Notes under the pieces: generated by a model
What the model saw: only the letters and a program-made list of their open reading frames with translations
Told to the model about the DNA's origin: nothing
The model's database searches: none
Shown: piece by piece, positions 3,051 through 63,439 of the stretch
Numbering within the stretch: position 1 is the first letter of the stretch
Layout: every line of letters begins with the position of its first letter
Made by a program: the position numbers and the translations under genes
DNA from: Escherichia phage Mangalyan
Length of the DNA stretch: 64,000 nucleotides
Sequence record: OR449013
Strand: one strand, 5' to 3'

Positions 3051-3986
3051 ATGACAAATGAGGAACGTATAATGAAGTATTTTAATGCAGACGACCTAGT
3101 TGACAAAGGTCTTGTAACCAGTAGGTATTACCCAGATCTCGGGCTAAAGATCTATAAATATGCCAGAAAAGTATTCTACAACAATCTGTGGCATTTGTCT
3201 CCGCGTTTACTGGAGTGCCGAGGTATTGTTGTTGGCAATGAGGGGAATGTTGTGGCATGGCCTTTCACAAAAGTATTCAACTTAGGAGAAAACTCCACCA
3301 ACCTACCGGACAGTAAACTTGTTACTGCGGTAGAGAAAAAGAACGGATTCCTCGGTGTGGTATCATCTCATAAAGGTGACCTATTGTTCTCAACAACCGG
3401 GTCTCTTGATTCTCCATATTGTAACCTTGCAAAGGAAACCATCCAAGAGCAATGTGGTAATTTAGATCTTATCAAGAAGGTTATGGGCAATGAAAACATG
3501 ACATTCATGTTTGAAATTTGTCACCCTTCAGATCCGCATATTGTTCAAGAAGACCATGGCGCATATTTGATAGGTTGCAGATATAATGATTCTGGAATAA
3601 TGCTACCAGAAGCAGCTTTAGATGGGATTGCCAAATACCTTGGTGCAAAACGTCCTCACACTGTGCGTGAAATTCCGTTCAGCTATGCAAAAGAGTTAGC
3701 TGCAGAAACAAGAGGTGAAGGATATATGATTCGTAAGCCTTACTACCCTTATGATCTGCAGTTGAAGATCAAGTCTCCATACTATCTGGCACGAAAGGCC
3801 GTAATGAGGGGTAAAGCTTGGAAGATTTGGGATGATGATATCTTTAAACGTGTTGACGAAGAGTTTTACGGCATGGTAAACTTCATTCGTAACAACTACA
3901 CAGAGGATGTATGGAACTGCCTCCTGGAGCAGGAACGCCGTGAGATACTTGACTGCTATTTCCACAACGAGGACTATATGCAATGA
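3051..3986 (+). CDS. rnlA: RNA ligase, Rnl1 family (T4 gp63-like)
   Basis: nucleotidyltransferase motif I K-x-N-G (VEKKNGFLG, Lys about residue 96); blocks LECRGIV and KVFNLGEN match the N-terminal region of T4 RNA ligase 1 as I recall it. Confidence 0.8.
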   Translation: MTNEERIMKYFNADDLVDKGLVTSRYYPDLGLKIYKYARKVFYNNLWHLSPRLLECRGIVVGNEGNVVAWPFTKVFNLGENSTNLPDSKLVTAVEKKNGFLGVVSSHKGDLLFSTTGSLDSPYCNLAKETIQEQCGNLDLIKKVMGNENMTFMFEICHPSDPHIVQEDHGAYLIGCRYNDSGIMLPEAALDGIAKYLGAKRPHTVREIPFSYAKELAAETRGEGYMIRKPYYPYDLQLKIKSPYYLARKAVMRGKAWKIWDDDIFKRVDEEFYGMVNFIRNNYTEDVWNCLLEQERREILDCYFHNEDYMQ

Positions 3987-7882: not shown

Positions 7883-8353
7883 ATGAAACTTGATAAAAAT
7901 GTTCAACGAAAGGCTTTCTTGGATATGATCGCATATTCGGAAGGCACAGATAATGGTAGACAACCTACCAAGGATCGGGGATACGATGTCATAGTCGGAG
8001 GCAAGCTGTTCAGCGATTACAGCAAGCATCCCGGTGTTTACGTTAAGCTAAATGCTAAACTTACCTCCTCCGCTGCTGGGCGTTACCAGGTTTTGGAGAA
8101 GTTTGCTAAACACTACATGGAACAGTTAGGATTGCCAGATTTTGGCCCTGCCAGTCAGGACAAGATTGCGTTGCAACTGATCCGTGAGTGCAAGGCTCTC
8201 GCCGACATTGACGAAGGGCGTATCCACGAGGCTATCCATAAATGCCGTTCCCGCTGGGCTTCGTTGCCTGGTGCTGGATATGGTCAGCATGAACAGAAGA
8301 TTGAGAAGTTGATCGAGGTGTTTAAAAAGGCAGGCGGTGTTGTCCTTGATTGA
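7883..8353 (+). CDS. endolysin, lambda R-type lytic transglycosylase
   Basis: near-colinear with lambda R as recalled: QRKAFLDM, SEGTDNGRQ, GYDVIVGG, AGRYQ, WASLPGAGYGQ; catalytic Glu in SEGT. Confidence 0.9.
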   Translation: MKLDKNVQRKAFLDMIAYSEGTDNGRQPTKDRGYDVIVGGKLFSDYSKHPGVYVKLNAKLTSSAAGRYQVLEKFAKHYMEQLGLPDFGPASQDKIALQLIRECKALADIDEGRIHEAIHKCRSRWASLPGAGYGQHEQKIEKLIEVFKKAGGVVLD

Positions 8354-9748: not shown

Positions 9749-10880
9749 AGAATATCCACTTATTGAGTCCATAGATTGTCTGGCTGATCTTCTTGAACCT
9801 GACGCTATAGTTTATTATGACTTCGATCAGGTTGCATATCAAGCTGCAGCAAGTTGTGAAAAAAGGACAATTGAGGTAACACACAAAGCCTCCGGACGTA
9901 AGAAGATGTTTAAAACACGAACAGAGTTCTGGGGGCGGCAGAAGAACACCGTTGGTGGTTGGTTAAAAGCTGAGAATACCAACCGTGAAGCTGCATGTAA
10001 AAAGGCTGGCAAGGAGTTTATTCCGTGGACACGAGAAGATTTCGATGTCTTGGATATCCAAACCCCAGATCCTGTAGAGAACTGCTTGCACACAATTAAG
10101 TGTAAAGCTAATGCAGTCCTTAATTATCTCGGTATTCCGGAAGATCGGTGCGTTGGGGTGCTGGGAGGCACAGGTAACTTCAGACTAGATCTCCCAATGC
10201 CGGAAAGATATAAAGCCAACCGTAACAATACTCTTCGACCACTGCTGCTTGGAGATGCAAGGCAGTATCTCCAAAAGCAGTATAATGCTCAAGTGATCAA
10301 CGGTATCGAGGCTGACGACTGGTTAGCTATCCAGCAATTTGAAGGTTGGAACCACTACCAAAAAACAGGTAAGTTCAACAAGTTTATTATCTCTATTGAT
10401 AAGGACCAAAGAACACTACCGGGGCTTGTGTTCGATCCCATGCGAAATGATAAGGGAGATTTTGTAAGGGAAACCCCTATGCTGATCGATAACGGTATGG
10501 GTAACATCTTCATGAAGCCTAATGGAGAGGTTGGTGGTTACGGAATGCTGTTCTTCGGATACCAAATGCTGTGTGGTGACTCTGCTGACAACATCAAGCC
10601 GTATCAAGGACTTATCGGTAAGGGTAAGTTCGGGGATGCCTCAGCATTCTACCTACTGTCTCAGTGCAGCACTCCAAAGGAGATGTGGGCGGCTATTATT
10701 GATCAGTACAAGAAGTGGTTCCCGAAAGGTGTTGTTAAGTATACTGACTTCAATGGTATTGATCGTAGAATTTCCGTAGGTCAGTGGATGAGTATAATTT
10801 TTGACTGTTTGTATATGAAGCGAACATTCAATGATCGAACAAAACTTGTTAACGTTCTTAGAAATGTTGGAGCAATTTGA
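9741..10880 (+). CDS. 5'-3' exonuclease, T7 gp6-like (FEN/PIN fold)
   Basis: blocks ERYKANRNN, FIISIDKDQRTLP, GIEADDWLA, CGDSADNIKPYQGLIG parallel T7 gene 6 exonuclease and T5 FEN motifs as recalled. Confidence 0.75.
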   Translation: MSREYPLIESIDCLADLLEPDAIVYYDFDQVAYQAAASCEKRTIEVTHKASGRKKMFKTRTEFWGRQKNTVGGWLKAENTNREAACKKAGKEFIPWTREDFDVLDIQTPDPVENCLHTIKCKANAVLNYLGIPEDRCVGVLGGTGNFRLDLPMPERYKANRNNTLRPLLLGDARQYLQKQYNAQVINGIEADDWLAIQQFEGWNHYQKTGKFNKFIISIDKDQRTLPGLVFDPMRNDKGDFVRETPMLIDNGMGNIFMKPNGEVGGYGMLFFGYQMLCGDSADNIKPYQGLIGKGKFGDASAFYLLSQCSTPKEMWAAIIDQYKKWFPKGVVKYTDFNGIDRRISVGQWMSIIFDCLYMKRTFNDRTKLVNVLRNVGAI

Positions 10881-44697: not shown

Positions 44698-44715
44698 AAG
44701 GGGCCTAAGCCCCTT
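44698..44715 (-). terminator. rho-independent terminator for leftward transcripts
   Basis: AAGGGGC CTAA GCCCCTT; on minus strand followed by UCUUUUUGUC. Confidence 0.65.
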
Positions 44716-45153: not shown

Positions 45154-45296
45154 GGTGTTTTTACCTCTTAGTTAATTTTCTTACAACTCCCCTTCAAAAA
45201 AGAATATAGCAAAACTGCCGATCCCTGTCAACCAGGGATAGCATAATTTTTATGTGATCAAGGGGCTTTATTACCCCCTGACCGTAACTTGTTGTA

Positions 45297-45632
45297 TTAT
45301 TTGTTGCTCATCCAGTTTTCCCAAGCTGCCTGATAATCTGCCTCACTGCGGCGGATCTCTTCTTGTTCTTCAAGCCGGATCTCTTCTTCCAGGTACCCCA
45401 GGATATCGGATTTTTTGGTCTGGCGTAGCATCCAGTCATCTTTTTTGCGAGTAAAGATCTTATAAGCTTTCTCGCAAACCTCTTTTTTGCTACCTTTTTG
45501 GACTTCAAGAATTCTGTAGGCCATGTACTGAACTAATTTAAGCTGATCCAGACGTTTCATGATGTTTTCCTCTTTATGCGGTTCGTTTTGATTAGTTGAT
45601 AATACAGCAGTTCGCAGATCAGTCTTTAGCAA
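45297..45632 (-). CDS. hypothetical protein (111 aa)
   Basis: ORF in leftward block. Confidence 0.5.
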   Translation of the reverse strand: MLKTDLRTAVLSTNQNEPHKEENIMKRLDQLKLVQYMAYRILEVQKGSKKEVCEKAYKIFTRKKDDWMLRQTKKSDILGYLEEEIRLEEQEEIRRSEADYQAAWENWMSNK

Positions 45633-45857: not shown

Positions 45858-45917
45858 TTTCTTTCTCTCTTTGTGTGGTTCTGATTAGTGGGCCTTTTGG
45901 CCCGTGTCATTATCTTA

Positions 45918-46190
45918 TTACTTACGGCGGCAGAATTCAAGCGTTTTTAATTGATAATCTTCCTCAGCCTGGAGTACAACCGCCTCGATCATTTCGTTGG
46001 CATTGTTGAAGCCATACCCTTTAGCGAACTCATCCGCACCACCTTCGTGATCATGTTCTGCGTTCATCGCTTCCACGAAATGGAATTCAAGATTATTGAG
46101 ATAAGGGCTTGATGTTCCGTCCTCTTTTTCGATGAGATCCCAAATAGCATTAAAACGTGATTCGACTTCTTGATTAATCCAGCTTGACAT
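45918..46190 (-). CDS. hypothetical acidic protein (90 aa)
   Basis: ATG preceded by AGAAGAGAGGAAA and GC hairpin. Confidence 0.5.
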   Translation of the reverse strand: MSSWINQEVESRFNAIWDLIEKEDGTSSPYLNNLEFHFVEAMNAEHDHEGGADEFAKGYGFNNANEMIEAVVLQAEEDYQLKTLEFCRRK

Positions 46191-46401
46191 AATGTTTTCC
46201 TCTCTTCTGGTTGTTGTGTGGGCACTTTTGCCCCTTCAAGATAAATGTTACCCCACCACCTGGCAGATGTCAACGGTTTTTATAGTTCTTATATGACAGG
46301 CAGGCCCGGTGATTGTCTCCACCCGTCGCCAGGTGCCTGCCGTGAAACAAGTATAACAAAAAACAGGACCATTGCAAGCCCTGTTTTGTAGTTTATAAGG
46401 A

Positions 46402-46593
46402 TTATATTTTTTCGCCTATGTAGTCCGGTCGGTTTTTCTCTGTCATGCGCTTGAGCAATTCTTGCATGTTGCTTATGGCTTGCAGTGTATCCCCTTCCAG
46501 GCTTGAATCGACATAATCAGGATCGTCTATGACCTTTCTATGATTATGATAACGCAGTACCGCCAATACCTTTCTAACTTGTTCGATATTCAT
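46402..46593 (-). CDS. hypothetical protein (63 aa)
   Basis: ORF only. Confidence 0.4.
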   Translation of the reverse strand: MNIEQVRKVLAVLRYHNHRKVIDDPDYVDSSLEGDTLQAISNMQELLKRMTEKNRPDYIGEKI

Positions 46594-46607
46594 TTTTTAT
46601 CGCTCTT

Positions 46608-46741
46608 TAAAACAAGGTGCCAACCGTTTCCAATAGATCACTGACCATCAGGACAATACTGATCAGCACATATCTAACCATAAGGGGAAAGAGCGCCAGC
46701 GATCCCGCCACGATCCCCATGGTAATAATTATCTTTCTCAT
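46608..46741 (-). CDS. hydrophobic mini-protein (44 aa)
   Basis: below cutoff; start overlaps stop of upstream gene; MRKIIITMGIVAGSLALFPLMV. Confidence 0.3.
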
Positions 46742-46743
46742 GG

Positions 46744-47028
46744 TTAACGGTTCACGTAAGTTTTCCCGTTTACGGTTATCGGCAGATCCTCCAGGTCTGG
46801 ATCTTCTTTAAGGTCGCGAGCAAGCTCACCGCACCGGATACCCTCGAATCCGTAGTACTCTGTTGTGCCGTCCTTAAAAGTTTTTGCGGCAAGGCATAAC
46901 CGATAAGTAACACCGATTTGATTGACTGCATGAATATCTGTTAGATTAACCTCTTTTGCCAGCTCTTTGGCCATTGCAGGCGCATTAAGTCCAACAACCA
47001 GGGCAACCACTGCGATCATCTTTTTCAT
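46744..47028 (-). CDS. secreted or periplasmic protein (94 aa)
   Basis: N-terminal signal-peptide-like MKKMIAVVALVVGLNAPAMA. Confidence 0.55.
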   Translation of the reverse strand: MKKMIAVVALVVGLNAPAMAKELAKEVNLTDIHAVNQIGVTYRLCLAAKTFKDGTTEYYGFEGIRCGELARDLKEDPDLEDLPITVNGKTYVNR

Positions 47029-47117
47029 TGTGTCTATCCTCTTTCTGCTGCGTTTAAGGCGGTCACCGCCGCCTGTTTATGCTTTGTTAGTTAATGGGGC
47101 GCACGGTATAGATTAAA

Positions 47118-47342
47118 CTATGCTGTACGCTCAACTATAACAACGGCTTGAGGGATCTCACCTTCCACCACTATCAAGGCTTTTTTCTGCGTAATGGATA
47201 TCTTTACCCGTTGCAGCGTGGCGGTGAAGTCTTTCATTTCGTCACGTGGTGTTTTAGTGCAATGCCAGATCTCAGGTTTGCCGATCTGCAAGCCGCGTAA
47301 AAATTCCGTTTTGCCTGTTTTGTTAGTTATCATTTGATTCAC
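47118..47342 (-). CDS. hypothetical protein (74 aa)
   Basis: ORF in leftward block. Confidence 0.45.
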   Translation of the reverse strand: MNQMITNKTGKTEFLRGLQIGKPEIWHCTKTPRDEMKDFTATLQRVKISITQKKALIVVEGEIPQAVVIVERTA

Positions 47343-47347
47343 CTCAA

Positions 47348-47452
47348 CCGATACCGTGGGAAGATAGGATCATGTTAGCCATAGTTGCAACCAATCCAAC
47401 CAATAATGCCAGGCCAACTACTACAACCGTGAAAATTTTTTCTAACATGATT
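47348..47452 (-). CDS. hydrophobic mini-protein (about 34 aa)
   Basis: below cutoff; MLEKIFTVVVVGLALLVGLVATMANMIL; preceded by GC hairpin and GAGGG. Confidence 0.3.
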
Positions 47453-47525
47453 CTACCCTCAGTAATGGCGGGAAGTATTCCCGCGCTATGTAGTACACTT
47501 TACCAGATTGTTGACTGTTGTCAAA

Positions 47526-47750
47526 CTAATTTTTACAAGGGATCAGTAAACTTCTTGCTACTGCTTCACGTAGTCCTTGACTTTTTATCAGATCTATTGT
47601 TGCAGGATGGCAAGTAAAAGCCTTTGACCATTTTTGATCCCCTGGTTTACGGGCAAAAATGTAAACTTCCCCGTCGATTTCATCCCAACGAGTATTGCTT
47701 GTTAGTTTTTTAAGCGCCATGATGATTTCTCTTTTAGTTGTGAGCGGCAC
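47526..47750 (-). CDS. hypothetical protein (about 64-74 aa)
   Basis: ORF; alternative internal start MALKKL. Confidence 0.4.
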   Translation of the reverse strand: MPLTTKREIIMALKKLTSNTRWDEIDGEVYIFARKPGDQKWSKAFTCHPATIDLIKSQGLREAVARSLLIPCKN

Positions 47751-47808
47751 TATTGCCGCCCTATATGATAAACTATACCAGAATAAAAAACAGTGTCAAG
47801 CTATTTTA

Positions 47809-48048
47809 TCACATTCCAACCATCGCGGCACGGATCGCCGTAGTGCTGTACTTGAAGCCGTCCGGGGTCTTATCTTGTCCGGTTAGCTCCAGAAAAAGCA
47901 TCATATCCCGCGCCGCATCATTACGATTAGCATTAGCGTTAATAAAGCCTTGGGCCAACCGGTACAATGACTCATCGTTATTAATCCAAAGGCTTACATT
48001 CCAATGAGTTTTGTTTTTGTAACCGTTATAACCTTTATTGCTTTTCAT
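47809..48048 (-). CDS. hypothetical protein (79 aa)
   Basis: ATG preceded by AAAGAAGAGG. Confidence 0.5.
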   Translation of the reverse strand: MKSNKGYNGYKNKTHWNVSLWINNDESLYRLAQGFINANANRNDAARDMMLFLELTGQDKTPDGFKYSTTAIRAAMVGM

Positions 48049-48394
48049 GGTGTTTACCTCTTCTTTGTTCCGGGTGGAGGATCATTCTACCACCTTATGT
48101 ATTATGCTTTGTTAGATGGTTGTTTGTTGCCAAACTATTTTAACGATAATCATCATATGCTTTATTTACCTGGCGAATATAACATTCAAAAGCCAGATCA
48201 ATAGATTTATATTCACGGATATACTCACCATAGGAAACCACATACATTTCTATAGCTTCCTCATATGCGAGGAGAATAGAATCTAAGCCTACGATCTCAG
48301 TTTTTGCAATAATAGCCATGATTTTTATCCTCTTTGTGGTTGGTGGGGCTTGTTGCCCCCTTTGATTTATATACTACAGTTTTATATGGTCATG

Positions 48395-48628
48395 TCAACA
48401 CTTTTCAAAAAATTTTTCTGCCGTGATATTCTTCCCGGTAGGGTTCGCTACTTTCAAAATTTTATCATGCACTGGACGCCCAAAAGAATAAGATCCGTAT
48501 ACAGTAAACCAATAATCTCCGTCAGGCTGTACTATTACCGCCGCATATGGTACGCCTTTTTCGTTTTTGCTGACAAAATAGATCACATTACCATTAATAG
48601 CCTCAGCGCGTTTAATTTGTTCCATCAT
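48395..48628 (-). CDS. hypothetical protein (77 aa)
   Basis: ATG preceded by AAAGAGAGG and GC hairpin. Confidence 0.5.
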   Translation of the reverse strand: MMEQIKRAEAINGNVIYFVSKNEKGVPYAAVIVQPDGDYWFTVYGSYSFGRPVHDKILKVANPTGKNITAEKFFEKC

Positions 48629-48695
48629 GATGATTTGCCTCTCTTTATTTTTTTTATGATTTTATGCTGTAGGGGCCTTTTCGGCCCCGCCAGGT

Positions 48696-48980
48696 TTATT
48701 TATTGATAGCGTGCAGCGGGAAAGCTACGCCAGGTTGATAGATAACCTTTACAACCTCATCAGGACAAAAGAAATTGCAGAACTCACCGCAATAGGCCTC
48801 ATCCTCTTTTAATTCTTCATCAACATACTCAAAAAAGTAGTCGATGCTTGGATAATCCTGGCCGGGATTATAGTCGACCATCGTTAATAATAACTCTTGA
48901 TCATTCCGTAAGATATGCATACCCGCTTTTAAGTATTTTGCTTCCATTTCTACTGCATCGCCAGCGGTAACAATAGCCAT
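48696..48980 (-). CDS. hypothetical protein (94 aa)
   Basis: ATG preceded by ATAGGAG and GC hairpin. Confidence 0.5.
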   Translation of the reverse strand: MAIVTAGDAVEMEAKYLKAGMHILRNDQELLLTMVDYNPGQDYPSIDYFFEYVDEELKEDEAYCGEFCNFFCPDEVVKVIYQPGVAFPLHAINK

Positions 48981-49203
48981 GGTTTTAACTCCTATCTATC
49001 CGGTTAATGATTTGGGGCCGCCCCCTGATGCGTCCTATTATCCATATTGTGGGGCTTGATGCAAGTACTTCTTTAAAAATTTTTTAAGCGCCTTGGGGCC
49101 GCTGTAACGCTAAAATAATAAAGACCATGCAACCGCATAGCCTTAATGTGATTATATCGCTGCAGGCCCTGCTAGGGGCCTTATTTTGCATCATTTACCG
49201 GAA

Positions 49204-49512
49204 CTATACAGAGAAAACATCGTTCACAATAGCGATCACAATGCCGCCCACCTTGTCACGGTCAACAATGCACAAATCACCATAGATCATGTGGTAGTCT
49301 GGATGATCTTTCACAGAATAGTCAATAAGCGTTTTCTTGTCGTCCAGCTTCGTAACTTCCATTCTCATAACGATATGAGAATCATCAAAGGCATTATTCC
49401 GAAAAATCATAGCCTGGCCGCCAGGGCACCCGGTGATCTCCACTTCCACACCATCTACGATCTGACCATCAAAGAAATAAAGATTATTAGCCTGGATAAA
49501 CATGCCTATCAC
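49204..49512 (-). CDS. hypothetical protein (102 aa)
   Basis: ATG preceded by AAGGAG. Confidence 0.5.
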   Translation of the reverse strand: MIGMFIQANNLYFFDGQIVDGVEVEITGCPGGQAMIFRNNAFDDSHIVMRMEVTKLDDKKTLIDYSVKDHPDYHMIYGDLCIVDRDKVGGIVIAIVNDVFSV

Positions 49513-49549
49513 TCCTTGTTAACTGCGTGGTATTTTAACAGGGTTTAAA

Positions 49550-49598
49550 TTTACTTTATTGATGGCCTTGGAGTCAAGGCCATCTAAAAATAAATTTT
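49550..49598 (-). promoter_or_regulatory. conserved about 46-bp element (copy 1 of 3): hairpin GATGGCC-N10-GGCCATC with TTGACT in loop, leftward promoter-like
   Basis: near-identical copies at 53291-53337 and 53912-53957; on minus strand reads TTGACT, 18-bp spacer, TAAATT. Confidence 0.5.
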
Positions 49599-49797
49599 AC
49601 AGGCCTACAATCTCTTTAATTCGTTTTACTGCTGCCTCAGCGCCTTGAGGGTAAAAATTATGGTAACCAATCACGCGAGTGATACTAATCGCCGTTTGAT
49701 GATCTTCATAATCACCTTTAAAGATTTCTTGACCGTCAATCAGCACGGCAATTTTTTCTTCTTTTTTGAAGTTAATAACGCGGATATTGTTGCTCAT
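49597..49797 (-). CDS. hypothetical protein (66 aa)
   Basis: ATG preceded by GAAAGGAGAAAC and 5' GC hairpin 49829-49843. Confidence 0.5.
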   Translation of the reverse strand: MSNNIRVINFKKEEKIAVLIDGQEIFKGDYEDHQTAISITRVIGYHNFYPQGAEAAVKRIKEIVGL

Positions 49798-49851
49798 TTT
49801 GTTTCTCCTTTCTGGTTTTTGTGGTGGTGGGGATTAGCTCCCCGTTGATTG

Positions 49852-49881
49852 TTATTATCCACATTCCGGACCGGATTGCAA
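49852..49881 (-). promoter_or_regulatory. leftward sigma70-like promoter followed by 5'-proximal GC hairpin
   Basis: minus-strand TTGCAA (49876-49881), 17-bp spacer, ATAATA (about 49853-49858); hairpin GGGGA-TTAGC-TCCCC at 49829-49843. Confidence 0.45.
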
Positions 49882-49928
49882 CACCCCGGAAGAATTTTTT
49901 TTTTTTTAAAGATAGGCCCCCATGATCG

Positions 49929-50048
49929 GGGGCCGTTCTTAGTTACTTACAGCGATAAAGTACATCCCTACGCCTAGCAATATTTCAAGGGCGATAATCT
50001 CAAGCCATACCATAACGCGGCGCACCTTATCGGTGCGGGGCTTATCCT
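49929..50048 (-). CDS. hydrophobic mini-protein (39 aa)
   Basis: below cutoff; GGGGGAG RBS; MTPKDKPRTDKVRRVMVWLEIIALEILLGVGMYFIAVSN. Confidence 0.35.
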
Positions 50049-50224
50049 TGGGTGTCATCGTCTCCCCCTTCCCTTCTGGTAGTAGTGACGTGGTTTACAA
50101 TGGCCCCCAGGAGTATTATCACCACGCACATTACAAGAAAAATTATCTCTGTCGTTGTTCGATCCATTGTTATAAAATTCCTTAAGATCAGGCCTGAAAA
50201 TAAAGCTTTCATTATTGAATCCAT
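50042..50224 (-). CDS. small membrane protein (up to 60 aa)
   Basis: ORF with hydrophobic core IIFLVMCVVIILLGAIV; start uncertain. Confidence 0.3.
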   Translation of the reverse strand: MDSIMKALFSGLILRNFITMDRTTTEIIFLVMCVVIILLGAIVNHVTTTRREGGDDDTQG

Positions 50225-50277
50225 CCCGCCAGGCGGCTGGCCTCAAATCTTCACTAAATGGATTAATTAACGTGGTA

Positions 50278-50682
50278 TTATTTAAACGGCTGGCCCACAT
50301 ATTTTCTATTCCTCTCAAATAAGCGATCCGCCTCAGTTAAACAAATCTCATGGGCGTGATCTCTGGTTTTAGCTTCATCGAAAACCTGTTGTGCAAGGCT
50401 GCAACGTAGGGAGACTGGAAGATCACTATAATAGGCGTTGACAAACGTTTGAGCGTCGTACAGGTCGGAAAATACTTTACCCTTTCTATTATTCCCCTTG
50501 TCAACAATTGCAAGGATAACCAATACAATAGTTGCAACCACCCCCAGGAAAATAGATATAATAAACCATAAAAAGGCGGATCTTCCCATCTTGCCAGCGA
50601 TCCAGGCGTTAAACAAGGCAACCAATACAGCCAAAATAATAAATTCCATTCTATGTACCTCTTTTACAGTTCTGATTAACAA
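50278..50682 (-). CDS. membrane protein (134 aa, two TM segments)
   Basis: FIILAVLVALFNAWIAG and FLWFIISIFLGVVATIVLVILAIV. Confidence 0.55.
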   Translation of the reverse strand: MLIRTVKEVHRMEFIILAVLVALFNAWIAGKMGRSAFLWFIISIFLGVVATIVLVILAIVDKGNNRKGKVFSDLYDAQTFVNAYYSDLPVSLRCSLAQQVFDEAKTRDHAHEICLTEADRLFERNRKYVGQPFK

Positions 50683-50713
50683 TAAGGCGGCAAATATGCC
50701 GCCTGTTACCTGA

Positions 50714-51094
50714 TTAAAAATTATCGCCGTAAATCTTTCCGCTTTCTACCCATACCACCACGCGAGGCATACTATCCCACACGTCTTGTTTTAGATTGAG
50801 CGCGTGCAATTCTTCGGTGGTGCTCATACCGGGCACGGGCTGATTGTATACTGCAAAACGACCGCCTGCATAATCATAGGCCAGGGTTAAATCACACTGG
50901 ATCATCTTTTTGATCATGGCATTAAGCATGGCGTTAGCCGCATATTGGTCACGTTTTAAAGGCAACTCTTTGATTAGTTTGCGATAGTTTTCGATATGGT
51001 CGCACACTGTTTCACGCGGAAGATCTTTCATATCCTCGCGAAAGGTAACCAGGTTAAACATAACGGTGTCAATAGCCTTGGTAGTGTTTTTCAT
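50714..51094 (-). CDS. hypothetical protein (126 aa)
   Basis: ATG preceded by AAAGAGGATAAAATC, 5' hairpin 51119-51139 and promoter. Confidence 0.55.
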   Translation of the reverse strand: MKNTTKAIDTVMFNLVTFREDMKDLPRETVCDHIENYRKLIKELPLKRDQYAANAMLNAMIKKMIQCDLTLAYDYAGGRFAVYNQPVPGMSTTEELHALNLKQDVWDSMPRVVVWVESGKIYGDNF

Positions 51095-51148
51095 GATTTT
51101 ATCCTCTTTGTTTTGTGTGGGGGCAAACGTCTTGCCCCCTTGAGTTTT

Positions 51149-51176
51149 AATATAGCAGGTTTTTAGGTTATTGCAA
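51149..51176 (-). promoter_or_regulatory. leftward sigma70-like promoter followed by 5'-proximal GC hairpin
   Basis: minus-strand TTGCAA (51171-51176), 16-bp spacer, TATATT (51149-51154); hairpin GGGGGC-N9-GCCCCC at 51119-51139. Confidence 0.5.
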
Positions 51177-51184
51177 CACTTTAT

Positions 51185-51808
51185 TTATGAAAAAGTCATC
51201 TCGCCATATTCATCCACATCAAACCGCCAATCATTGGCCTCGATAAGGCCGATCAGGTTTTCGGTAGTGAATTGTTCAAGATAGGCCCCCTCCAGGTCTA
51301 CGTAAACCTTGCGGGATAGCTCCCGTACCGTCTCGGTGATCAGCTCTTCCAGGTCTTCCACTTTGTTTTCTTGTTTGGCGGTCAGATCTAGCCAGGTGGT
51401 ATCAATGTATCCGCTTACAGTGTTTTCATGGCTGTAATGGCTGTACTTGTCGCGTTCAACACTGGCCGATAACTCGCCATCGTGCATTGTGCCGAACAAG
51501 TGACGAATTGATCGGAACTTGGTCAGGGCCTTGACTTTACGCAAGAATTTTTCTAAGTCTACATTTTCAGCACTAATCGATGCGCCATCGCCTTGACACC
51601 AAAAGCCGGACCAATGTACTTCGGTATCTTCAAGGCCGTACTCTGGAAAAACTTGTTCTTTATAGTATTCAATTACATTTTCTGCAAAAAAGTTATCCCC
51701 GCTGTGTTCTTCTCTTTCGCGTACCATTTCAATGGCTTTTTCTTTTTGTTCGTCGGTCAGCACGTCGAAAGATAAATTGTAACCTGTGGTAATGTTAACG
51801 GTGGTCAT
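51185..51808 (-). CDS. hypothetical protein (207 aa)
   Basis: ATG preceded by AACAGGAGAAAA; contains HWSGFWCQGDGASI block that I cannot assign. Confidence 0.55.
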   Translation of the reverse strand: MTTVNITTGYNLSFDVLTDEQKEKAIEMVREREEHSGDNFFAENVIEYYKEQVFPEYGLEDTEVHWSGFWCQGDGASISAENVDLEKFLRKVKALTKFRSIRHLFGTMHDGELSASVERDKYSHYSHENTVSGYIDTTWLDLTAKQENKVEDLEELITETVRELSRKVYVDLEGAYLEQFTTENLIGLIEANDWRFDVDEYGEMTFS

Positions 51809-51865
51809 GATATTTTCTCCTGTTTTCTTTGTTAGTGGCGGGAAGTTTTCCCGCCTATGTTTTTA

Positions 51866-51893
51866 ATTATACTTATCAAGATTTACTTGTCAA
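51866..51893 (-). promoter_or_regulatory. leftward sigma70-like promoter
   Basis: minus-strand TTGACA (51888-51893), 16-bp spacer, TATAAT (51866-51871). Confidence 0.6.
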
Positions 51894-52143
51894 CACTATT
51901 TTTTAAATTATTGTGGCGCAAAATGTTTAAAATCTCCTCAACGTCATCAACACGGCGGCAATTTTTAAACGCTACCAATTGCCCCAAGATTTTAATTACT
52001 GGGCGGCCTTGCCAGTGACCTTGAAGAAAGCGCGCTTTAACTTTATCGGTGGAACTATCACGCCACCAAATAGCCTTGTTGTTGCAGTAGTAAAAATTAT
52101 TCAGGATAACATCAACCTTATCAAAATTTTTTAATTTACGCAT
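51883..52143 (-). CDS. hypothetical protein (86 aa)
   Basis: ATG preceded by AAAGGAGTAAACGCC. Confidence 0.5.
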   Translation of the reverse strand: MRKLKNFDKVDVILNNFYYCNNKAIWWRDSSTDKVKARFLQGHWQGRPVIKILGQLVAFKNCRRVDDVEEILNILRHNNLKNSVDK

Positions 52144-52175
52144 GGCGTTTACTCCTTTCTCTCTTTGATGTGGTT

Positions 52176-52203
52176 AGTATAGCTAACCTGTTTAAGATGT
52201 CAA
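52176..52203 (-). promoter_or_regulatory. leftward sigma70-like promoter
   Basis: minus-strand TTGACA (52198-52203), 16-bp spacer, TATACT (52176-52181). Confidence 0.55.
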
Positions 52204-52386
52204 GCTTTAAATAAAATCACTGTCAATAATATTTTTAACGCCATAAAACGGTCCTGGGCGATGTTTTCAGGTTAAAGGGGGCGATTTTGCATAGGTGGGG
52301 GCCTTTTTGGCGCTTACAGGGCCAACCAGGGGCGCTATTCGTAGGATAGAAACAAAAAGCCCCGCACAATGGCGGGGCGTTGGTTG

Positions 52387-52584
52387 TTATTTGTCTTTAT
52401 GGCGGTACCGTTCCGCCTGTCGTTCACGTTCCAAAAGTAGGCTGGGCAATTTACGATCATAATGATTGCGCCAGATCTTCCCAAACCTTTTTGGCTTATT
52501 CAGTTTATTGTTACGCTGGCGGCGTTCCGGCAGCTCTTCGGAATCATGAGGGCGCTTTACAATTTTCTCGAAATTAATTTTCAT
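52387..52584 (-). CDS. hypothetical basic protein (65 aa)
   Basis: ORF overlapping upstream stop. Confidence 0.45.
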   Translation of the reverse strand: MKINFEKIVKRPHDSEELPERRQRNNKLNKPKRFGKIWRNHYDRKLPSLLLERERQAERYRHKDK

Positions 52585-52991
52585 ATATTCCCCCCCTTGC
52601 TAACTTCAATATTGGCCTGAATGGCCCGGATACGGCGCTTTATAACTTCCTGATCTGTGTGATCGTATCCCCAAAAGTCCACAATTTTTGCGCCCCCCGC
52701 CTCCAGGCGGTATAGTGTTTCCTGCATTTTGTAAGCCGGGATCGGTCGCGGTGTTACTTGGTCACCTTCTTTATTTTTATACTTTATAATATAATCTTCG
52801 TTATCGTTAAATGTCCAAAATGGATATTCTGCAAGGGCGGTACTTCCTCTTTCCTTTTTATCCTGGATCTTGTTTACAATTAAAGCCGTAGCAATAGCGC
52901 CAATAATAAAACTAGCCCCGCTAATCATGTACTTTCTCCTTTCATTGTATTGATAAACTATCTTTATAGATGGCCCTGCAACCAGGACCAC
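52581..52991 (-). CDS. hypothetical protein with N-terminal TM anchor (136 aa)
   Basis: ISGASFIIGAIATALIV hydrophobic segment. Confidence 0.5.
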   Translation of the reverse strand: MVLVAGPSIKIVYQYNERRKYMISGASFIIGAIATALIVNKIQDKKERGSTALAEYPFWTFNDNEDYIIKYKNKEGDQVTPRPIPAYKMQETLYRLEAGGAKIVDFWGYDHTDQEVIKRRIRAIQANIEVSKGGNI

Positions 52992-53002
52992 CGAAAAAAT
53001 AA

Positions 53003-53248
53003 CTATTTCACAATGCCTACAAAACAGATTCCGCCTTCACCTATATAGGCAATATCGGTAATTTTATAATTTGTCAAGATCCGCGTGTTCAGCTCATTAA
53101 TAAAATCGGTCATCGCGTTGGTGTAGTTGTCTTCCGTATCTAAGGCATAATCCCAGGTGTAAACCTTTTTACGTCCGAAGCCTTTTACCATGATACGGGC
53201 GCTTTTGGTGTTGGTAGGGGCATAATATTTGGTGATTAGTGCTGCCAT
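53003..53248 (-). CDS. hypothetical protein (81 aa)
   Basis: ATG preceded by ATAGGAG. Confidence 0.5.
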   Translation of the reverse strand: MAALITKYYAPTNTKSARIMVKGFGRKKVYTWDYALDTEDNYTNAMTDFINELNTRILTNYKITDIAYIGEGGICFVGIVK

Positions 53249-53290
53249 GGTTTTAACTCCTATGCATTAGTTCAGTGTTAACAGTATAAA

Positions 53291-53337
53291 GTTTACTTTA
53301 TTGATGGCCCTGGTGTCAAGGCCATCTAAAAATAAAT
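53291..53337 (-). promoter_or_regulatory. conserved about 46-bp element (copy 2 of 3)
   Basis: TTTACTTTATTGATGGCCCTGGTGTCAAGGCCATCTAAAAATAAA; minus strand TTGACA, 18-bp spacer, TAAACT. Confidence 0.5.
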
Positions 53338-53679
53338 TTACTCGTTTTCTTCCAGTTCTGCAAGCTCTTCTTTCACTTCTTCCAGCTCTGTCTGCAATTC
53401 TTGGTACTCTTCATCGTCCTCAATATCCAGGCTGTCGATGTAGTCGCTAAATCCGCAGCGGTAAGCGATAGGATCTAACTCCTTGAGGATACGCGACGGA
53501 AGAAAAGAAATGTTTCCGATCATAATTTCGCCATAGATCTCGTCTAGCCATTCATCATAGTTTTCGTCGTACTTGTCCTCGTCGATTTCAAAGTTATCGA
53601 TCTTGTTCTCAAGGTCTGCGATCTGTTTTTTCAGCGCGGCGATCTGAATAGCTTTTTCTGCGGCGGTCATAGTAGTCAT
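53338..53679 (-). CDS. hypothetical acidic coiled-coil protein (113 aa)
   Basis: ATG preceded by AAAGGAGAAAACACC. Confidence 0.5.
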   Translation of the reverse strand: MTTMTAAEKAIQIAALKKQIADLENKIDNFEIDEDKYDENYDEWLDEIYGEIMIGNISFLPSRILKELDPIAYRCGFSDYIDSLDIEDDEEYQELQTELEEVKEELAELEENE

Positions 53680-53729
53680 GGTGTTTTCTCCTTTTTGTGT
53701 TTTGGGAAGTTTTCCCGTTTACGTGTTTA

Positions 53730-53757
53730 AGTATACCGATTTGGGTTAGCTTGTCAA
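53730..53757 (-). promoter_or_regulatory. leftward sigma70-like promoter
   Basis: minus-strand TTGACA (53752-53757), 16-bp spacer, TATACT (53730-53735). Confidence 0.55.
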
Positions 53758-53911
53758 TTAAAAATTTAAGAAAAATTTTGCAAAACTGTTGGCGCTACCC
53801 ATCAACATTTGCGCCAGGATGTACCCAATGATGCAAACGATGATGGTTACCTTTGTGTGCTGGCGTGTAGTGCTCATCTTTAAGCCTCCTTTTCCGCTCA
53901 ACTGTGGTTAG

Positions 53912-53957
53912 TTTACTTTATTGATGGCCCTGGAGTCAAGGCCATCTAAAAATAAAC
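53912..53957 (-). promoter_or_regulatory. conserved about 46-bp element (copy 3 of 3)
   Basis: TTTACTTTATTGATGGCCCTGGAGTCAAGGCCATCTAAAAATAAA. Confidence 0.5.
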
Positions 53958-54353
53958 TCAATAAGTTTTTAGTACTTTCCCGTCCAATCTGTCAAGCTGG
54001 ATCTCGATAGCTGCAGAAAACCTATTGTAAACCACATCGCCCAGGGAGTCCAGCCAATCTATGACGTTATATACCTGCTCTTTATTCTTGCAAGTCCGGA
54101 TCCGTTTCATTACGTAAGACGGATCAATATTAGCGCTCTCGTTGTTGTGGTCCTGCGCCTGGCCTGCTGCGCTAATTATAGATTTTACAACCACCTGAAA
54201 GGGCTTTAAGGTGCCTTTTGCGTTCATCTCACGCGCTTTTGCGGCGCGGTTGTTATATGTTACACAACGGCGGCAAATGTTGACCAAATGCATATCAATA
54301 ATTTTTTCATCGTTTGCCAGTTCGTTCATGATGCGGCGTACGTTCTTATTCAT
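53958..54353 (-). CDS. hypothetical protein (131 aa)
   Basis: ATG preceded by AAAGGAAAAAGATC and GC hairpin. Confidence 0.5.
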   Translation of the reverse strand: MNKNVRRIMNELANDEKIIDMHLVNICRRCVTYNNRAAKAREMNAKGTLKPFQVVVKSIISAAGQAQDHNNESANIDPSYVMKRIRTCKNKEQVYNVIDWLDSLGDVVYNRFSAAIEIQLDRLDGKVLKTY

Positions 54354-54435
54354 GATCTTTTTCCTTTGTGCTGGCGGGAAACATTCCCGCCTTTTGTGTC
54401 TAGTTTACTTAAATTTTGCAGCGTGTCAATGATTT

Positions 54436-54834: not shown

Positions 54835-54898
54835 GATTTTATCCTCTTAGTGTCTTTTGTGCTTTTAGTGTATTTGGTGTCTGACTATATGTCAATAC

Positions 54899-55096
54899 TT
54901 ATTTTTTATTAAACCAGTGGTTGATCTGGCCTTTTGTCAGGGCGCAACGATTAAGCTGTTGCCGGGTATAGCTCTGACCGCGACGGAATTTATAAAGGCC
55001 TTGCCCGTTGTTGATGGTTACGTCCACCTGGCAAACCATTTGATCGGTGACGGCCTGGCGAGTGTTGCGACGTACTTTAATTCCGTAGGCGTTCAT
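54899..55096 (-). CDS. hypothetical basic protein (65 aa)
   Basis: ATG preceded by AGAGAGGATAAAAAATC. Confidence 0.45.
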   Translation of the reverse strand: MNAYGIKVRRNTRQAVTDQMVCQVDVTINNGQGLYKFRRGQSYTRQQLNRCALTKGQINHWFNKK

Positions 55097-55465
55097 GATT
55101 TTTTATCCTCTCTGTTAATTAGTGTGGTGTTGTTCACCTTGCGAGGATAAGAATAACAGAACTATCCGAGCTGTCAACCATTAGTTAGAATTATTTTTTG
55201 GGCAGAATTCTCCAGCCGCCGCCCCTGCCAGGTTAACCATCATTTTTTCGTACTCTTCTTTATGTTCCAACGCTCCCGCCATAGCCTTTTCAACCAGGGC
55301 GATAACTTCAGCGGCATTGATCGCTACATTTTCCAGGGGATTATATTACTTTTCATTTTTGTACCTCTTCTGTAGCTGCTTACTTTATAGCGTGGACCTG
55401 CCAGGCTGGCCCCGCCAGGTTGCAACGGTTAGCGCATCAGGTTAGAATTTTTTTTTTGAAAAGTG

Positions 55466-55494
55466 TTGACAGCGGCCCCGCCAGGTGGCACAAT
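55466..55494 (+). promoter_or_regulatory. candidate rightward promoter driving tandem structured units
   Basis: TTGACA 55466-55471, 17-bp spacer, CACAAT; GC-rich spacer GGCCCCGCCAGGTGG. Confidence 0.4.
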
Positions 55495-55510
55495 ATACCT
55501 ATCGAAAGGA

Positions 55511-55735
55511 CGGCAGGCACCGGTGACGGGGGAGACAACCACCGGGGATGGGCGCTGCATAAAATGAGAACGGTTATCATTATCATTTAAAAATTTATGC
55601 AAAAAGTCCTTGCTTTCTTTGTCCTGTGTGATACTATAATAACAAGCCGGGGCAACAGGGGCCGGGAGACAATCACCGGGGGTGCCCGTTATTCTGCAAA
55701 CGAGAATGATTATCATTCAAAATTCTAAATGAGAA
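55511..55735 (+). ncRNA. two tandem about 85-nt related units (candidate small structured RNAs or regulatory elements)
   Basis: unit A about 55511-55600 and unit B about 55649-55735 share GGGAGACAAYCACCGGGG and GAGAAYGRTTATCATT; second unit preceded by TATAAT 55635-55640; no ORF with RBS. Confidence 0.3.
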
Positions 55736-55899
55736 CTCCTCGCATTTAATAAATTTAATTAGCATGCTAATTACCCTCCGTAACAATTTCCTATAAAACA
55801 GTATCCCATAAAATATTCCCATATAGAAATTTTAAAAATCCATTTCTGAAAACGAAAAATCGATTTCGTCCCCAAAAATTTCAGGTCGAGATCCGGAAC

Positions 55900-56025
55900 G
55901 ATTTCCAGAAAATCCGATTTAGAAAACGAAAAACAGATCGAGTACTGAGAAATTTATCGAGAAAAATTTTCAGAAAATCCAAGCCATGAAATGAAAAGTA
56001 GATCGAGTACTGGAAAAATTGTACC
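55900..56025. repeat. tandem about 65-bp AT-rich direct repeat (two units) within a larger repeat-rich spacer
   Basis: AGATCGAGTACTG at about 55935 and 56000; CAGAAAATCC at about 55908 and 55971; GAAAACGAAAAA at about 55849 and 55922. Confidence 0.7.
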
Positions 56026-56319
56026 GCAACCCACTGATAGTGATGGGTTTTCCGTCATAAATCACTAAGAGTGAGTGGAGAAAGGTATGGTGGAGAGGTG
56101 TGTATGTGTGGGAAATATGGAACGGTGATCTCGAGTATGGTGCAAACGGCTAGATAGATTGGCACAATTTTCCGCGCTTGTGTTGAAAAAATCCATTTTA
56201 GTTTTCGATCCATTTTCTGATTTTCTAAGAATTTTAAAATATCTATGTGTTCAAAATATCAGGAGAAAATACATTTTAGAAATTCCCCTGATTTCTGGCA
56301 ACTTGGCAATTTAAAAATA

Positions 56320-56652
56320 TCAGGTGCCCAGTTTGTTCTTTCCTTTATATAAACGCAAGGGTATAGTTTTTGTAACAGTCCACCTTCCCACACCTTCCCA
56401 GTTCCAGTTGTAGGCATGGTACCCGGTTACGCATGCACTGCTAGAGTGGTCATAGGCATAAGAGAACGCTATACGCACCAAATGGAACCAGTCTTTCCAC
56501 GGTTGTGGTCCGTAAGCTTTTCTCCAACACCGACACAAACTAAATGTCTCAAGAATAGGCAGGATAACAAATCCATACACCGCCACCAGAATAGCCAGCG
56601 CAATGATTGTCAGGAATACATACCCTGCAGTTGAAACGATGATCTCTGTCAT
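56320..56652 (-). CDS. membrane protein (110 aa)
   Basis: N-terminal YVFLTIIALAILVAVYGFVILPIL. Confidence 0.5.
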   Translation of the reverse strand: MTEIIVSTAGYVFLTIIALAILVAVYGFVILPILETFSLCRCWRKAYGPQPWKDWFHLVRIAFSYAYDHSSSACVTGYHAYNWNWEGVGRWTVTKTIPLRLYKGKNKLGT

Positions 56653-59785: not shown

Positions 59786-59847
59786 TTTTCAGATCTCCTT
59801 ATACAAAAATGCCCCACCCTTTCGGGCAGGGCTATGTTAGTTAGGTG

Positions 59848-62079: not shown

Positions 62080-62162
62080 TATGGAATCTCCGATTTTATT
62101 TGAACAACATAGAAGGAGACACTATTTTAGCATCCCCTTCTGTAAATTACAATAGGTATTTG

Positions 62163-63110: not shown

Positions 63111-63439
63111 GCTTCCTCATCATCTAAGTAATCATCAAGAGAGGTGAAGATTTCACCGAAGTATTCTAAGATTTCTAGCTCACGTGTGGTGCAGCAAACA
63201 TAATCGCCTTGGTCGTCCTTAATAGTGGCCTCTTTACCCAGAATATCTACTTCAAGTTCATCGTTCAACAGGACGGCCCCTGTGTAAACTTTGTCAGCTG
63301 TGCAGTCCCGAAAAGCAGAGTCCTTCTCCAGATAGTCTGGCTTAACCTTGGCTTTAATTCGTTGATATTGTTTGGTCATTGCTGTGGTCCCCTTTCGTTT
63401 TGATAGGGCCATTATAGTAGGCCCTATGACTGTTGTCAA
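63107..63439 (-). CDS. small protein, tandem paralogue family C (110 aa)
   Basis: KPDYLEKDSAFRDCT ... DDQGDYVCCT parallels KPECVENDRAFKDCT ... DDEGDSVWCT of 63443-63697. Confidence 0.55.
   Translation of the reverse strand: MTTVIGPTIMALSKRKGTTAMTKQYQRIKAKVKPDYLEKDSAFRDCTADKVYTGAVLLNDELEVDILGKEATIKDDQGDYVCCTTRELEILEYFGEIFTSLDDYLDDEEA

Follow-up and report, generated by a model that had tools for sequence, protein, structure and literature searches.

Promoter-linked stem-loops in the leftward early region of Escherichia phage Mangalyan resemble the promoter-early stem-loop cassettes of T4-like phages

Why is a short GC-rich hairpin repeated in front of so many small leftward genes of one phage? 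Here, we address this question for Escherichia phage Mangalyan (sequence record OR449013) in a stretch of 64,000 nucleotides (nt), hereafter the window, in which an earlier note had described at least eleven such hairpins between positions 45858 and 54398. We find that twelve leftward genes have a common upstream plan in which the hairpin lies between a sigma-70 promoter and the ribosome site, and that these hairpins are very probably part of expression cassettes of the promoter-early stem-loop (PeSL) type. The design itself is already known as PeSL in T4-like phages; what is new is its occurrence in a Vequintavirus and the dominance of a transcribed hairpin position after the -10 box. The earlier note overlooked this precedent as well as sister classes in which the hairpin lies over the -35 or the -10 box. 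Our best overall explanation, to which we give an even chance, combines PeSL-type cassettes, a protective stem-loop at the 5' end of the mRNA and exchange of gene modules at the cassettes.

A common upstream plan of leftward genes

For each leftward gene start, a script recorded the best perfect stem-loop within 110 nt upstream together with the best sigma-70-like promoter. All eleven hairpins named earlier were recovered on the minus strand within 10 nt of the positions given for them (51119-51139, 49829-49843, 45890-45903, 46220-46233, 47468-47484, 48345-48359, 48672-48688, 49014-49025, 51837-51855, 53704-53716 and 54373-54391), and three further hairpins were found at 47742-47761, at 47057-47074 and, in weak form, at 55126-55138. 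Hairpins of -6.5 kcal/mol or lower lie inside the 60 nt upstream of 14 of 26 gene starts, versus a mean of 1.35 starts (standard deviation 1.16, maximum 5) in 200 dinucleotide-preserving shuffles, i.e., a 10-fold enrichment.

The twelve genes with the common plan, which we refer to as class A, start at 55096, 54353, 53679, 51808, 51094, 49797, 48980, 48319, 47720, 47448, 46190 and 45857. Read from its upstream end, the plan starts with an AT-rich UP-like tract and a sigma-70 promoter and continues with a stem-loop made of a G-run and a C-run, a leader of A and C, a strong Shine-Dalgarno site and the ATG. The promoters agree with an independent consensus scan and consist of TTGACA or TTGCAA, a spacer of 16-17 nt and TAnnnT, with 9-12 of 12 consensus matches in all twelve. 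The hairpin, with a stem of 4-8 bp and a loop of 3-5 nt, begins 8-13 nt after the end of the -10 box. The earlier note had called for an alignment of the 5' regions; this alignment (A1) gives a cassette of 75-90 bp that wholly fills intergenic gaps of 63-95 nt, and the copies have motifs in common only, with a mean column identity of 60%. In the list below, promoters are written as -35 box, spacer length and -10 box, the distance that follows runs from the -10 box to the hairpin, and z is the fold z-score.

55097-55177, minus strand: weak class A cassette, TTGACA-16-TATTCT, 11 nt, 4-bp hairpin 55126-55138; z -1.08
54354-54429, minus strand: class A cassette, TTGACA-16-TAAACT, 10 nt, hairpin 54373-54391 GGCGGGAAtgtTTCCCGCC, 19-nt leader with Shine-Dalgarno site, ATG at 54353; z -2.75
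53680-53757, minus strand: class A cassette, TTGACA-16-TATACT, 13 nt, weak hairpin 53704-53716 GGGAAaacTTCCC, leader of A and C only; z -1.1
51809-51893, minus strand: class A cassette, TTGACA-16-TATAAT (12/12 matches), 10 nt, hairpin 51837-51855 GGCGGGAAaacTTCCCGCC; z -3.98
51095-51176, minus strand: class A cassette, TTGCAA-16-TATATT, 9 nt, hairpin 51119-51139 GGGGGCAAgacgtTTGCCCCC, leader ACACAAAACAAAGAGGA; z -3.66
49798-49881, minus strand: class A cassette, TTGCAA-16-GATAAT, 10 nt, hairpin 49829-49843 GGGGAgctaaTCCCC; z -1.94
48981-49064, minus strand: class A cassette, TTGCAT-16-GATAAT, 11 nt, short G-run/C-run hairpin 49014-49025 GGGGgcggCCCC; z +0.64
48320-48398, minus strand: class A cassette, TTGACA-16-TAGTAT, 11 nt, hairpin 48345-48359 GGGGCaacaaGCCCC; z -1.74
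47721-47799, minus strand: class A cassette, TTGACA-16-TATAGT, 10 nt, hairpin 47742-47761 GGGCGGCAatagTGCCGCTC; z -3.89
47449-47524, minus strand: class A cassette, TTGACA-16-TAAAGT, 12 nt, hairpin 47468-47484 GCGGGAAtacTTCCCGC; z -1.25
46191-46273, minus strand: class A cassette, TTGACA-17-TAACAT, 11 nt, hairpin 46220-46233 GGGCAaaagTGCCC; z -1.88
45858-45940, minus strand: class A cassette, TTGAAT-17-TAAGAT, 8 nt, hairpin 45890-45903 GGGCCaaaaGGCCC; z -3.94

All class A 5' arms are G-rich, and the hairpin energies range from -4 to -14 kcal/mol. By fold z-score, five hairpins are strong (-2.75 to -3.98) and six modest (-1.1 to -1.9), while the 4-bp hairpin at 49014-49025 (z +0.64) is not significant by itself. 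Because several hairpins are individually weak, the case for them rests on recurrence and position. The position reported earlier, 20-35 nt before the start codon, agrees with the 19-33 nt from hairpin end to ATG measured in class A, the hairpin at 48672-48688 with 43 nt being the exception. Both promoters named earlier were found by the consensus scan (49881..49854, TTGCAA-16-GATAAT, and 51176..51149, TTGCAA-16-TATATT), and most other cassettes have better ones, of the form TTGACA-16/17-TAnnnT with 10-12 of 12 matches. The geometry likewise supports the proposal that the hairpin falls at the transcript start, with 2-6 unpaired nt predicted ahead of it.

The sequence on either side of these elements is biased in composition. 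The 20 nt upstream of the -35 box are 76% A+T compared to 58% in the background, and the leader between hairpin and Shine-Dalgarno site, rightly described before as CA-rich, is 84% A+C compared to 52%. In the 10 nt after the hairpin, the mean number of T is 1.08 where about 2.5 would be expected, and seven of the twelve cassettes have none at all there, in line with the earlier statement that the hairpins lack a U-tract and are not canonical intrinsic terminators. The Shine-Dalgarno site follows the hairpin after a gap of 5-15 nt without overlap, and in predicted folds of the 5' untranslated region (UTR) the hairpin is the sole stable element and leaves the Shine-Dalgarno region unpaired (P 0.68-0.99) in 10 of 12 cases.

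The interval 45858-54398 matches Vequintavirus (rV5-like) coliphages in the database, e.g., JES2013, FFH2, EdH4 and FV3, at 93-95% identity, and on these matches the window is that of an rV5-like Vequintavirus. The minus strand of the interval is packed tightly with 26 small genes of 34-207 amino acids (aa). Genes within the matched Vequintavirus regions are all annotated as hypothetical, and the ten largest products of the array match only PHROGs of unknown function. The region is early, hyperplastic and leftward, and its gene content differs among relatives. No class A cassette was found upstream of the plus-strand (replication) genes at 1-44 kb.

Conservation of pairing in close relatives

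An alignment anchored on detected hairpins would be circular, and we therefore aligned eleven cassettes with their orthologues from seven close relatives by their flanks. Variable columns make up 11% of the -35 box, 9% of the Shine-Dalgarno site and 26% of the spacer and -10 region; the corresponding values are 14% for the stem, 58% for the loop, 22% for the leader and 15% for coding sequence. Several lines of evidence indicate that stem variants are mostly compensated. First, in HMD-6 the stem of 51119-51139 changes from GGGGGCAA..TTGCCCCC to GGCGGGCGA..TTGCCCGCC with pairing kept. Second, the lengths of the G-run and the C-run of 49014-49025 co-vary across relatives. Third, the GGGGA..TCCCC stem of 49829-49843 becomes GGGGAG..CTCCCC in relatives (GGGGAGacaCTCCCC), and the structure is kept. 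The hairpin at 54373-54391 is unchanged in seven relatives, and that at 53704-53716 is unchanged although its flanks vary. Among about 24 variants that alter a hairpin, about 22 still fold, one loses the hairpin and one weakens it. Loops, by contrast, not only drift but are exactly inverted on unchanged stems in FV3 (51119-51139, GACGT to ACGTC) and in A51.2 (51837-51855, AAC to GTT); we read such exact inversions as the signature of template switching or flipping inside a palindrome. Because stems are kept or compensated while loops drift, pairing appears to be what selection maintains, the loop sequence being irrelevant.

The freedom of the loops excludes a protein that reads them, of the boxB or coat-protein type, and together with the presence of at least eight different stems in this one genome it excludes a single sequence-specific operator. 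A palindromic DNA operator at about +4 to +22, or the shared translational operator of the earlier note, bound as RNA, either of which would allow joint shut-off of the early genes, is accordingly very unlikely. Such an operator would sit at a location typical for repressors, and hairpin families do recur (GGCGGGAA..TTCCCGCC three times in the window, GGGCGGCAATGGTGCCGCTC frequently in Phapecoctavirus). However, the loops of 3-5 nt vary and invert, the hairpin keeps clear of the Shine-Dalgarno site, and a permissive Rfam search across 44-64 kb yielded just one chance-level match (E = 0.62, far under the gathering score) and thus no family. Three further candidates were rejected: the stems are too short for RNase III sites, the loops contain no GGA as for CsrA sites, and a nut/boxB-like antitermination site finds neither an Rfam match nor conserved loops.

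Relation to PeSLs, sister classes and other phages

The PeSLs of the T4-like phages RB49/phi1, T4/PST and KVP40/nt-1 combine a strong sigma-70 promoter, preceded by an AT-rich tract, with a polyG/polyC stem-loop. They are found in hyperplastic regions beside genes whose function is unknown, are grouped into five classes according to where the stem-loop lies, most often in the spacer or over the -10 box, and bring about modular shuffling (PMC2839356, PMC4122927). The cassettes described here match this description in having an AT-rich tract, a sigma-70 promoter, a G-run/C-run stem-loop, a CA-rich leader, a Shine-Dalgarno site and an ATG that fill a 65-90-bp gap; in serving small genes without a known function within an early, hyperplastic region, with indels between close relatives at the cassettes; and in falling into several stem-loop position classes, here downstream of the -10 box, over that box or over the -35 box. 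They differ in belonging to an unrelated phage group (Vequintavirinae) and in the predominance of the class after the -10 box, which is rare in RB49. Applied to the RB49 reference region, the same script placed the hairpin in the spacer or over the -10 box in 11 cassettes and after the -10 box in one (1/12); in all of them, a CA-rich leader and then an AGGAGA Shine-Dalgarno site come next. The class A copies are also less similar to one another than RB49 PeSLs (60% mean column identity): where PeSL copies are alike over about 100 bp, only the motifs recur in class A, and a class B repeat is 90-94% identical over 51 nt. The likeness is one of sequence, whereas reporter activity and mini-circles are features of the RB49 PeSLs (PMC2839356). 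The rV5 genome paper lists promoters and terminators and does not mention this cassette design, and the term PeSL was not found applied to rV5-like phages in the literature searched. The leader of RB49 PeSL193/192 (CCCAACACAAAACAAAAGGAGAA, 7897-7967) and that of the window at 51095-51120 (CCCCCACACAAAACAAAGAGGATAA) have an identical run of 12 nt in common, which could reflect convergence of A/C-rich leaders or cassette exchange between unrelated coliphages.

Class A accounts for 12 of about 20 cassettes in this region, and classes B and C occur alongside it. The 51-nt class B repeat is present in four copies (49547-49597, 52955-53005, 53289-53339 and 53909-53959); the second is 69% identical, and the other three are 90-100% identical over 51 nt, with TTGACT or TTGACA as -35 box in the loop and TAAACT as -10 box. 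The sister classes, promoterless hairpins and terminators are listed below.

53909-53959, minus strand: class B, copy of the 51-nt repeat; hairpin GATGGCCttgactccaGGGCCATC (GATGGCC..GGCCATC), -35 TTGACT in the loop, -10 TAAACT
45203-45239, minus strand: class B of unrelated sequence; hairpin ATCCCTGgttgaCAGGGAT (45221-45239) over the -35 box of TTGACA-17-TATATT
52172-52203, minus strand: class C, TTGACA-16-TATACT with the -10 box within hairpin GGTTAGctataCTAACC (52172-52188)
63403-63427 and 62111-62141: further class C-like units
48672-48688, minus strand: intercistronic hairpin GGGGCCgaaaaGGCCCC, no recognisable promoter, no T-tract, 43 nt before the ATG at 48628
47057-47074, minus strand: intercistronic hairpin AGGCGGcggtgaCCGCCT, no clear promoter, 28 nt before the ATG at 47028
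52359-52378, minus strand: canonical terminator GCCCCGCcattgtGCGGGGC followed by TTTTTGTTTC
49915-49934, 50685-50704, 49121-49144, 46360-46387 and 44698-44715, minus strand: other T-tailed, terminator-like hairpins

The earlier note had favored monocistronic units. Between 44.7 and 55.2 kb, however, this strand has about 17 promoters but no more than about 6 T-tailed terminator-like hairpins. The transcripts are therefore unlikely to be monocistronic and are probably nested with common 3' ends, and each hairpin would also be internal in read-through RNAs. In EdH4 records, two class A hairpins are labeled as putative transcriptional terminators (EdH4 3597-3611 and 9944-9962, corresponding to 48345-48359 and 54373-54391 of the window); both lie 10-11 nt past a consensus -10 box and have no T-tract.

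The cassette with the hairpin after the -10 box is not confined to this phage. In three Phapecoctavirus phages (REC, ZCKP1 and SKA64) it dominates the early arrays at a density of 15-20 cassettes per 13 kb, and it is dominant also in those of Vequintavirus ZYD and the jumbo Asteriusvirus A4. Across 113 distinct cassettes from 19 sequences, the hairpin lies 11.0 +/- 2.0 nt from the end of the -10 box and 23.4 +/- 4.6 nt from the ATG, with 1.22 T on average after it. Favored hairpins are lineage-specific regardless of the gene that follows, e.g., GGGCGGCAATGGTGCCGCTC, with many copies in Phapecoctavirus, or GGCGGGAA-N3-5-TTCCCGCC; the hairpin GGGCGGCAatagTGCCGCTC at 47742-47761 belongs to the most frequent family in Phapecoctavirus. 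Orthologues of a 126-aa gene have a different, lineage-typical hairpin in each phage (the search gave five loci, too few for statistics), pointing to concerted evolution or cassette replacement. In Cronobacter phage CR3 (Certrevirus, same subfamily; NC_017974, 81768-97964), 15 early-gene cassettes have a hairpin that fills the spacer between -35 and -10 boxes, e.g., GGGGCCgataGGCCCC, the very arrangement of the RB49 PeSLs, so that hairpin position varies between genera of one subfamily. Mycobacterium phage Thonko, an unrelated high-GC phage of an actinobacterial host, contains at 61850-69471 at least six repeats of cTTGACAa-N17-TAACTT, 11 nt, GGCGGGA-N4-CCCGCC, 13-17 nt and ATG, with an inverted repeat in the promoter spacer as well; we regard this cassette as a convergent look-alike. 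It was the only informative locus in a degenerate pattern scan of IMG/VR for a promoter plus GGCGGGAA, which otherwise returned mostly chance single matches.

Three observations concern the surroundings of the array. The non-coding gap of 240 nt at 52144-52386 holds the canonical terminator at 52359-52378, GC-rich segments and two tandem TTGACA boxes before the -10 box that is located within a hairpin. At 55200-56320, about 1.1 kb without an open reading frame of more than 95 aa contain three degenerate 65-nt direct repeats (55817-56020, 62-74% identical); this stretch probably corresponds to the "non-coding" block on the rV5 genome map and might be an origin or regulatory region. Finally, this E. 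coli rV5-like region has matches of 92-94% identity in about 22 GenBank records (MG0656xx) titled "Campylobacter phage", whose host assignment looks doubtful.

Candidate roles, gene exchange and implications

A stabilizing role of the hairpin, as raised in the earlier note, is plausible on sequence grounds. More specifically, we suggest, tentatively and at slightly less than an even chance, that it is a 5'-terminal stem-loop protecting early mRNA. Host RNA polymerase would start at the cassette's own promoter, at the seventh or eighth base after the -10 box, giving an mRNA with 2-6 free nt at its 5' end followed by the hairpin. The hairpin would act as RNA through its shape alone, hindering 5'-end-dependent decay via RppH and RNase E, and in read-through transcripts it would form a structured barrier between cistrons. 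The A/C leader, unable to pair, would leave the ribosome site open, and the hairpin would be neither a terminator for its own promoter nor a sequence-specific operator. The depletion of T in the leader argues for selection against self-termination.

Mechanisms of this kind are known. In E. coli, mRNAs with a stem-loop at the very 5' end are shielded from RNase E-dependent decay (Emory 1992, Bouvet & Belasco 1992, both listed in PMC3997798), and the 5' UTRs of ompA and papA contain such stabilizers (Bricker & Belasco 1999, also cited there). The present hairpins resemble the ompA and papA stabilizers in being short and a few nt from the predicted 5' end, in being followed by an open ribosome site and in depending on structure rather than sequence. 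Unlike these, which were shown by half-life experiments on single genes, they represent a repeated genome-wide design deduced from geometry, and their predicted unpaired 5' tail (2-6 nt) sometimes exceeds the protective length. Protection depends on the 5' stem-loop being preceded by at most about 4 unpaired nt, and the leader hairpin of phage T7 gene 10 is another 5'-terminal stem-loop that stabilizes mRNA. A purpose for such protection would be given by Srd: a homologue is reported for rV5 (PMC3606486), and in T4 this protein makes RNase E more active against host mRNA (PMC4980113). If early phage mRNAs bore the 5' hairpin as a "self" mark, so that they escape while an Srd-like protein boosts RNase E against host mRNA, this would amount to a general phage strategy of selective mRNA survival across Vequintavirinae, Stephanstirmvirinae, Asteriusvirus and the mycobacteriophage look-alike; we consider this extension improbable.

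Several observations weigh against 5'-end protection. The 5'-terminal position of the hairpin is predicted from promoter consensus alone, and the literature searches found no start-site, 3'-end, half-life or RNA-seq data for Vequintavirus and none on starts or RNA-seq for Phapecoctavirus; a candidate start-site preprint proved to concern a T5-like phage. The number of unpaired 5' nt, 2-6 and once up to 8, exceeds the limit of about 4 nt in some cassettes. Four intergenic hairpins (48672-48688, 47057-47074, the T-tailed 50685-50704 and 59811-59832) lack a convincing promoter, a strong promoter at 54895..54867 lacks a hairpin, and so does one distant orthologue of the 126-aa gene (L135). The constant spacing could come from copied cassettes or common descent and not from selection, and a strand test with strand-symmetric detection counted 8 G.T and 5 A.C mismatches inside stems, with much noise. 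Lastly, the spacer hairpin of CR3 and RB49 lies outside its own transcript, and protection of the 5' end therefore cannot be a function common to all classes.

The last point is also among those that favor the main rival, the reading of the PeSL authors, in which the stem-loop is an attenuator or insulator that stops or damps polymerase arriving from upstream and each gene is driven mainly by its own promoter. The CR3 and RB49 hairpin, upstream of the start site, is present in read-through RNA only; the stem-loop of PeSL211/210 reduced lacZ expression as much as rrnB T1 (PMC2839356) and, like the hairpins here, has no T-tract; promoterless intergenic hairpins are present in the array; and GenBank annotators called two of these hairpins terminators. 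Against it, a class A hairpin lies downstream of its own strong promoter, where efficient termination would silence the very gene it serves. Moreover, the 3' flank consists of A and C only, without T in the next 10 nt in 7 of 12, and canonical T-tailed terminators exist separately in the region. With true intrinsic terminators the hairpins have in common a GC-rich stem of 5-9 bp and an intergenic location, and they differ from them by the missing U-tract and the placement downstream of the gene's own promoter. We consider attenuation possible but unlikely. Termination on the opposite strand can be considered as well, since the A-rich stretch between -10 box and hairpin reads as a T-rich tail on the plus strand, and several hairpins appear in a scan as plus-strand terminator-like, e.g., 54373-54391 followed by TTTTGTGT. 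However, T's lie directly beside the stem in only one or two of twelve, the stretch has neither plus-strand genes nor strong plus-strand promoters, and the promoter discriminator and start region account for the A-richness, which makes antisense terminators the least credible of the readings, with hardly any chance of being correct. The candidate roles of the hairpin are not mutually exclusive.

Beyond expression, the cassettes appear to matter for gene content. Compared to seven close relatives, the stretch 44.7-55.2 kb has 20 distinct alignment breakpoints, of which 17 are intergenic or no more than 12 nt from a gene end, while 24% of the stretch is intergenic. Breakpoints fall within promoter or hairpin elements at 47468-47477, 47501-47507, 47770 and 48393. 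The gene 45857-45639 (72 aa) occurs only in the window and is absent from the seven relatives, in which cassette 45858-45940 lies directly upstream of the orthologue of gene 45560; the inserted gene is flanked by two copies of the leader, ACTAATCA(G/A)AAC..AAAGAG, the second at 45561-45600. These data support the idea that the repeated cassettes are sites where related phages gain, lose and swap gene modules, with the class B 51-nt repeat as the best candidate site for homologous exchange. The breakpoint bias supports exchange at cassettes without proving it because selection for intact genes also favors intergenic breakpoints. The morons of lambdoid phages, described as having unrelated flanks, a real terminator and insertion by illegitimate recombination (Hendrix 2000, as cited in PMC2839356), are similar in that single genes move with their own promoter and hairpin; here, in contrast, the homology comes from the flanks, which are repeated cassettes.

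It could be argued that the hairpins are a DNA-only feature, i.e., quasi-palindromes and repeated promoters that persist by promoting recombination and template switching, which shuffle gene modules, and have no role as RNA. Breakpoints within cassettes, loop inversions typical of template switching in palindromes and lineage-favored hairpins that are independent of the following gene would all fit. However, stems are as conserved as -35 boxes and Shine-Dalgarno sites while loops drift, arguing for direct selection on pairing; recombination does not require depletion of T after the hairpin; and gene integrity alone would put breakpoints in intergenic DNA. We therefore rate this alternative as rather improbable.

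The reading of these elements as PeSL-type promoter cassettes has consequences at three levels. For annotation, hairpins labeled as terminators sit just past strong promoters, and the promoter-cassette reading alters the predicted transcription map. If the hairpins protect 5' ends, each genome would hold about a dozen natural units of 75-90 bp that combine promoter, stabilizer, leader and ribosome site, and these cassettes would be of use both as parts and for testing how 5'-end-dependent decay proceeds in infection. For evolution, a mode of module shuffling through cassettes that has been described in T4-like phages only would operate in at least three more groups of large coliphages as well, and would account for the single small genes that these groups have in common at 70-84% identity.

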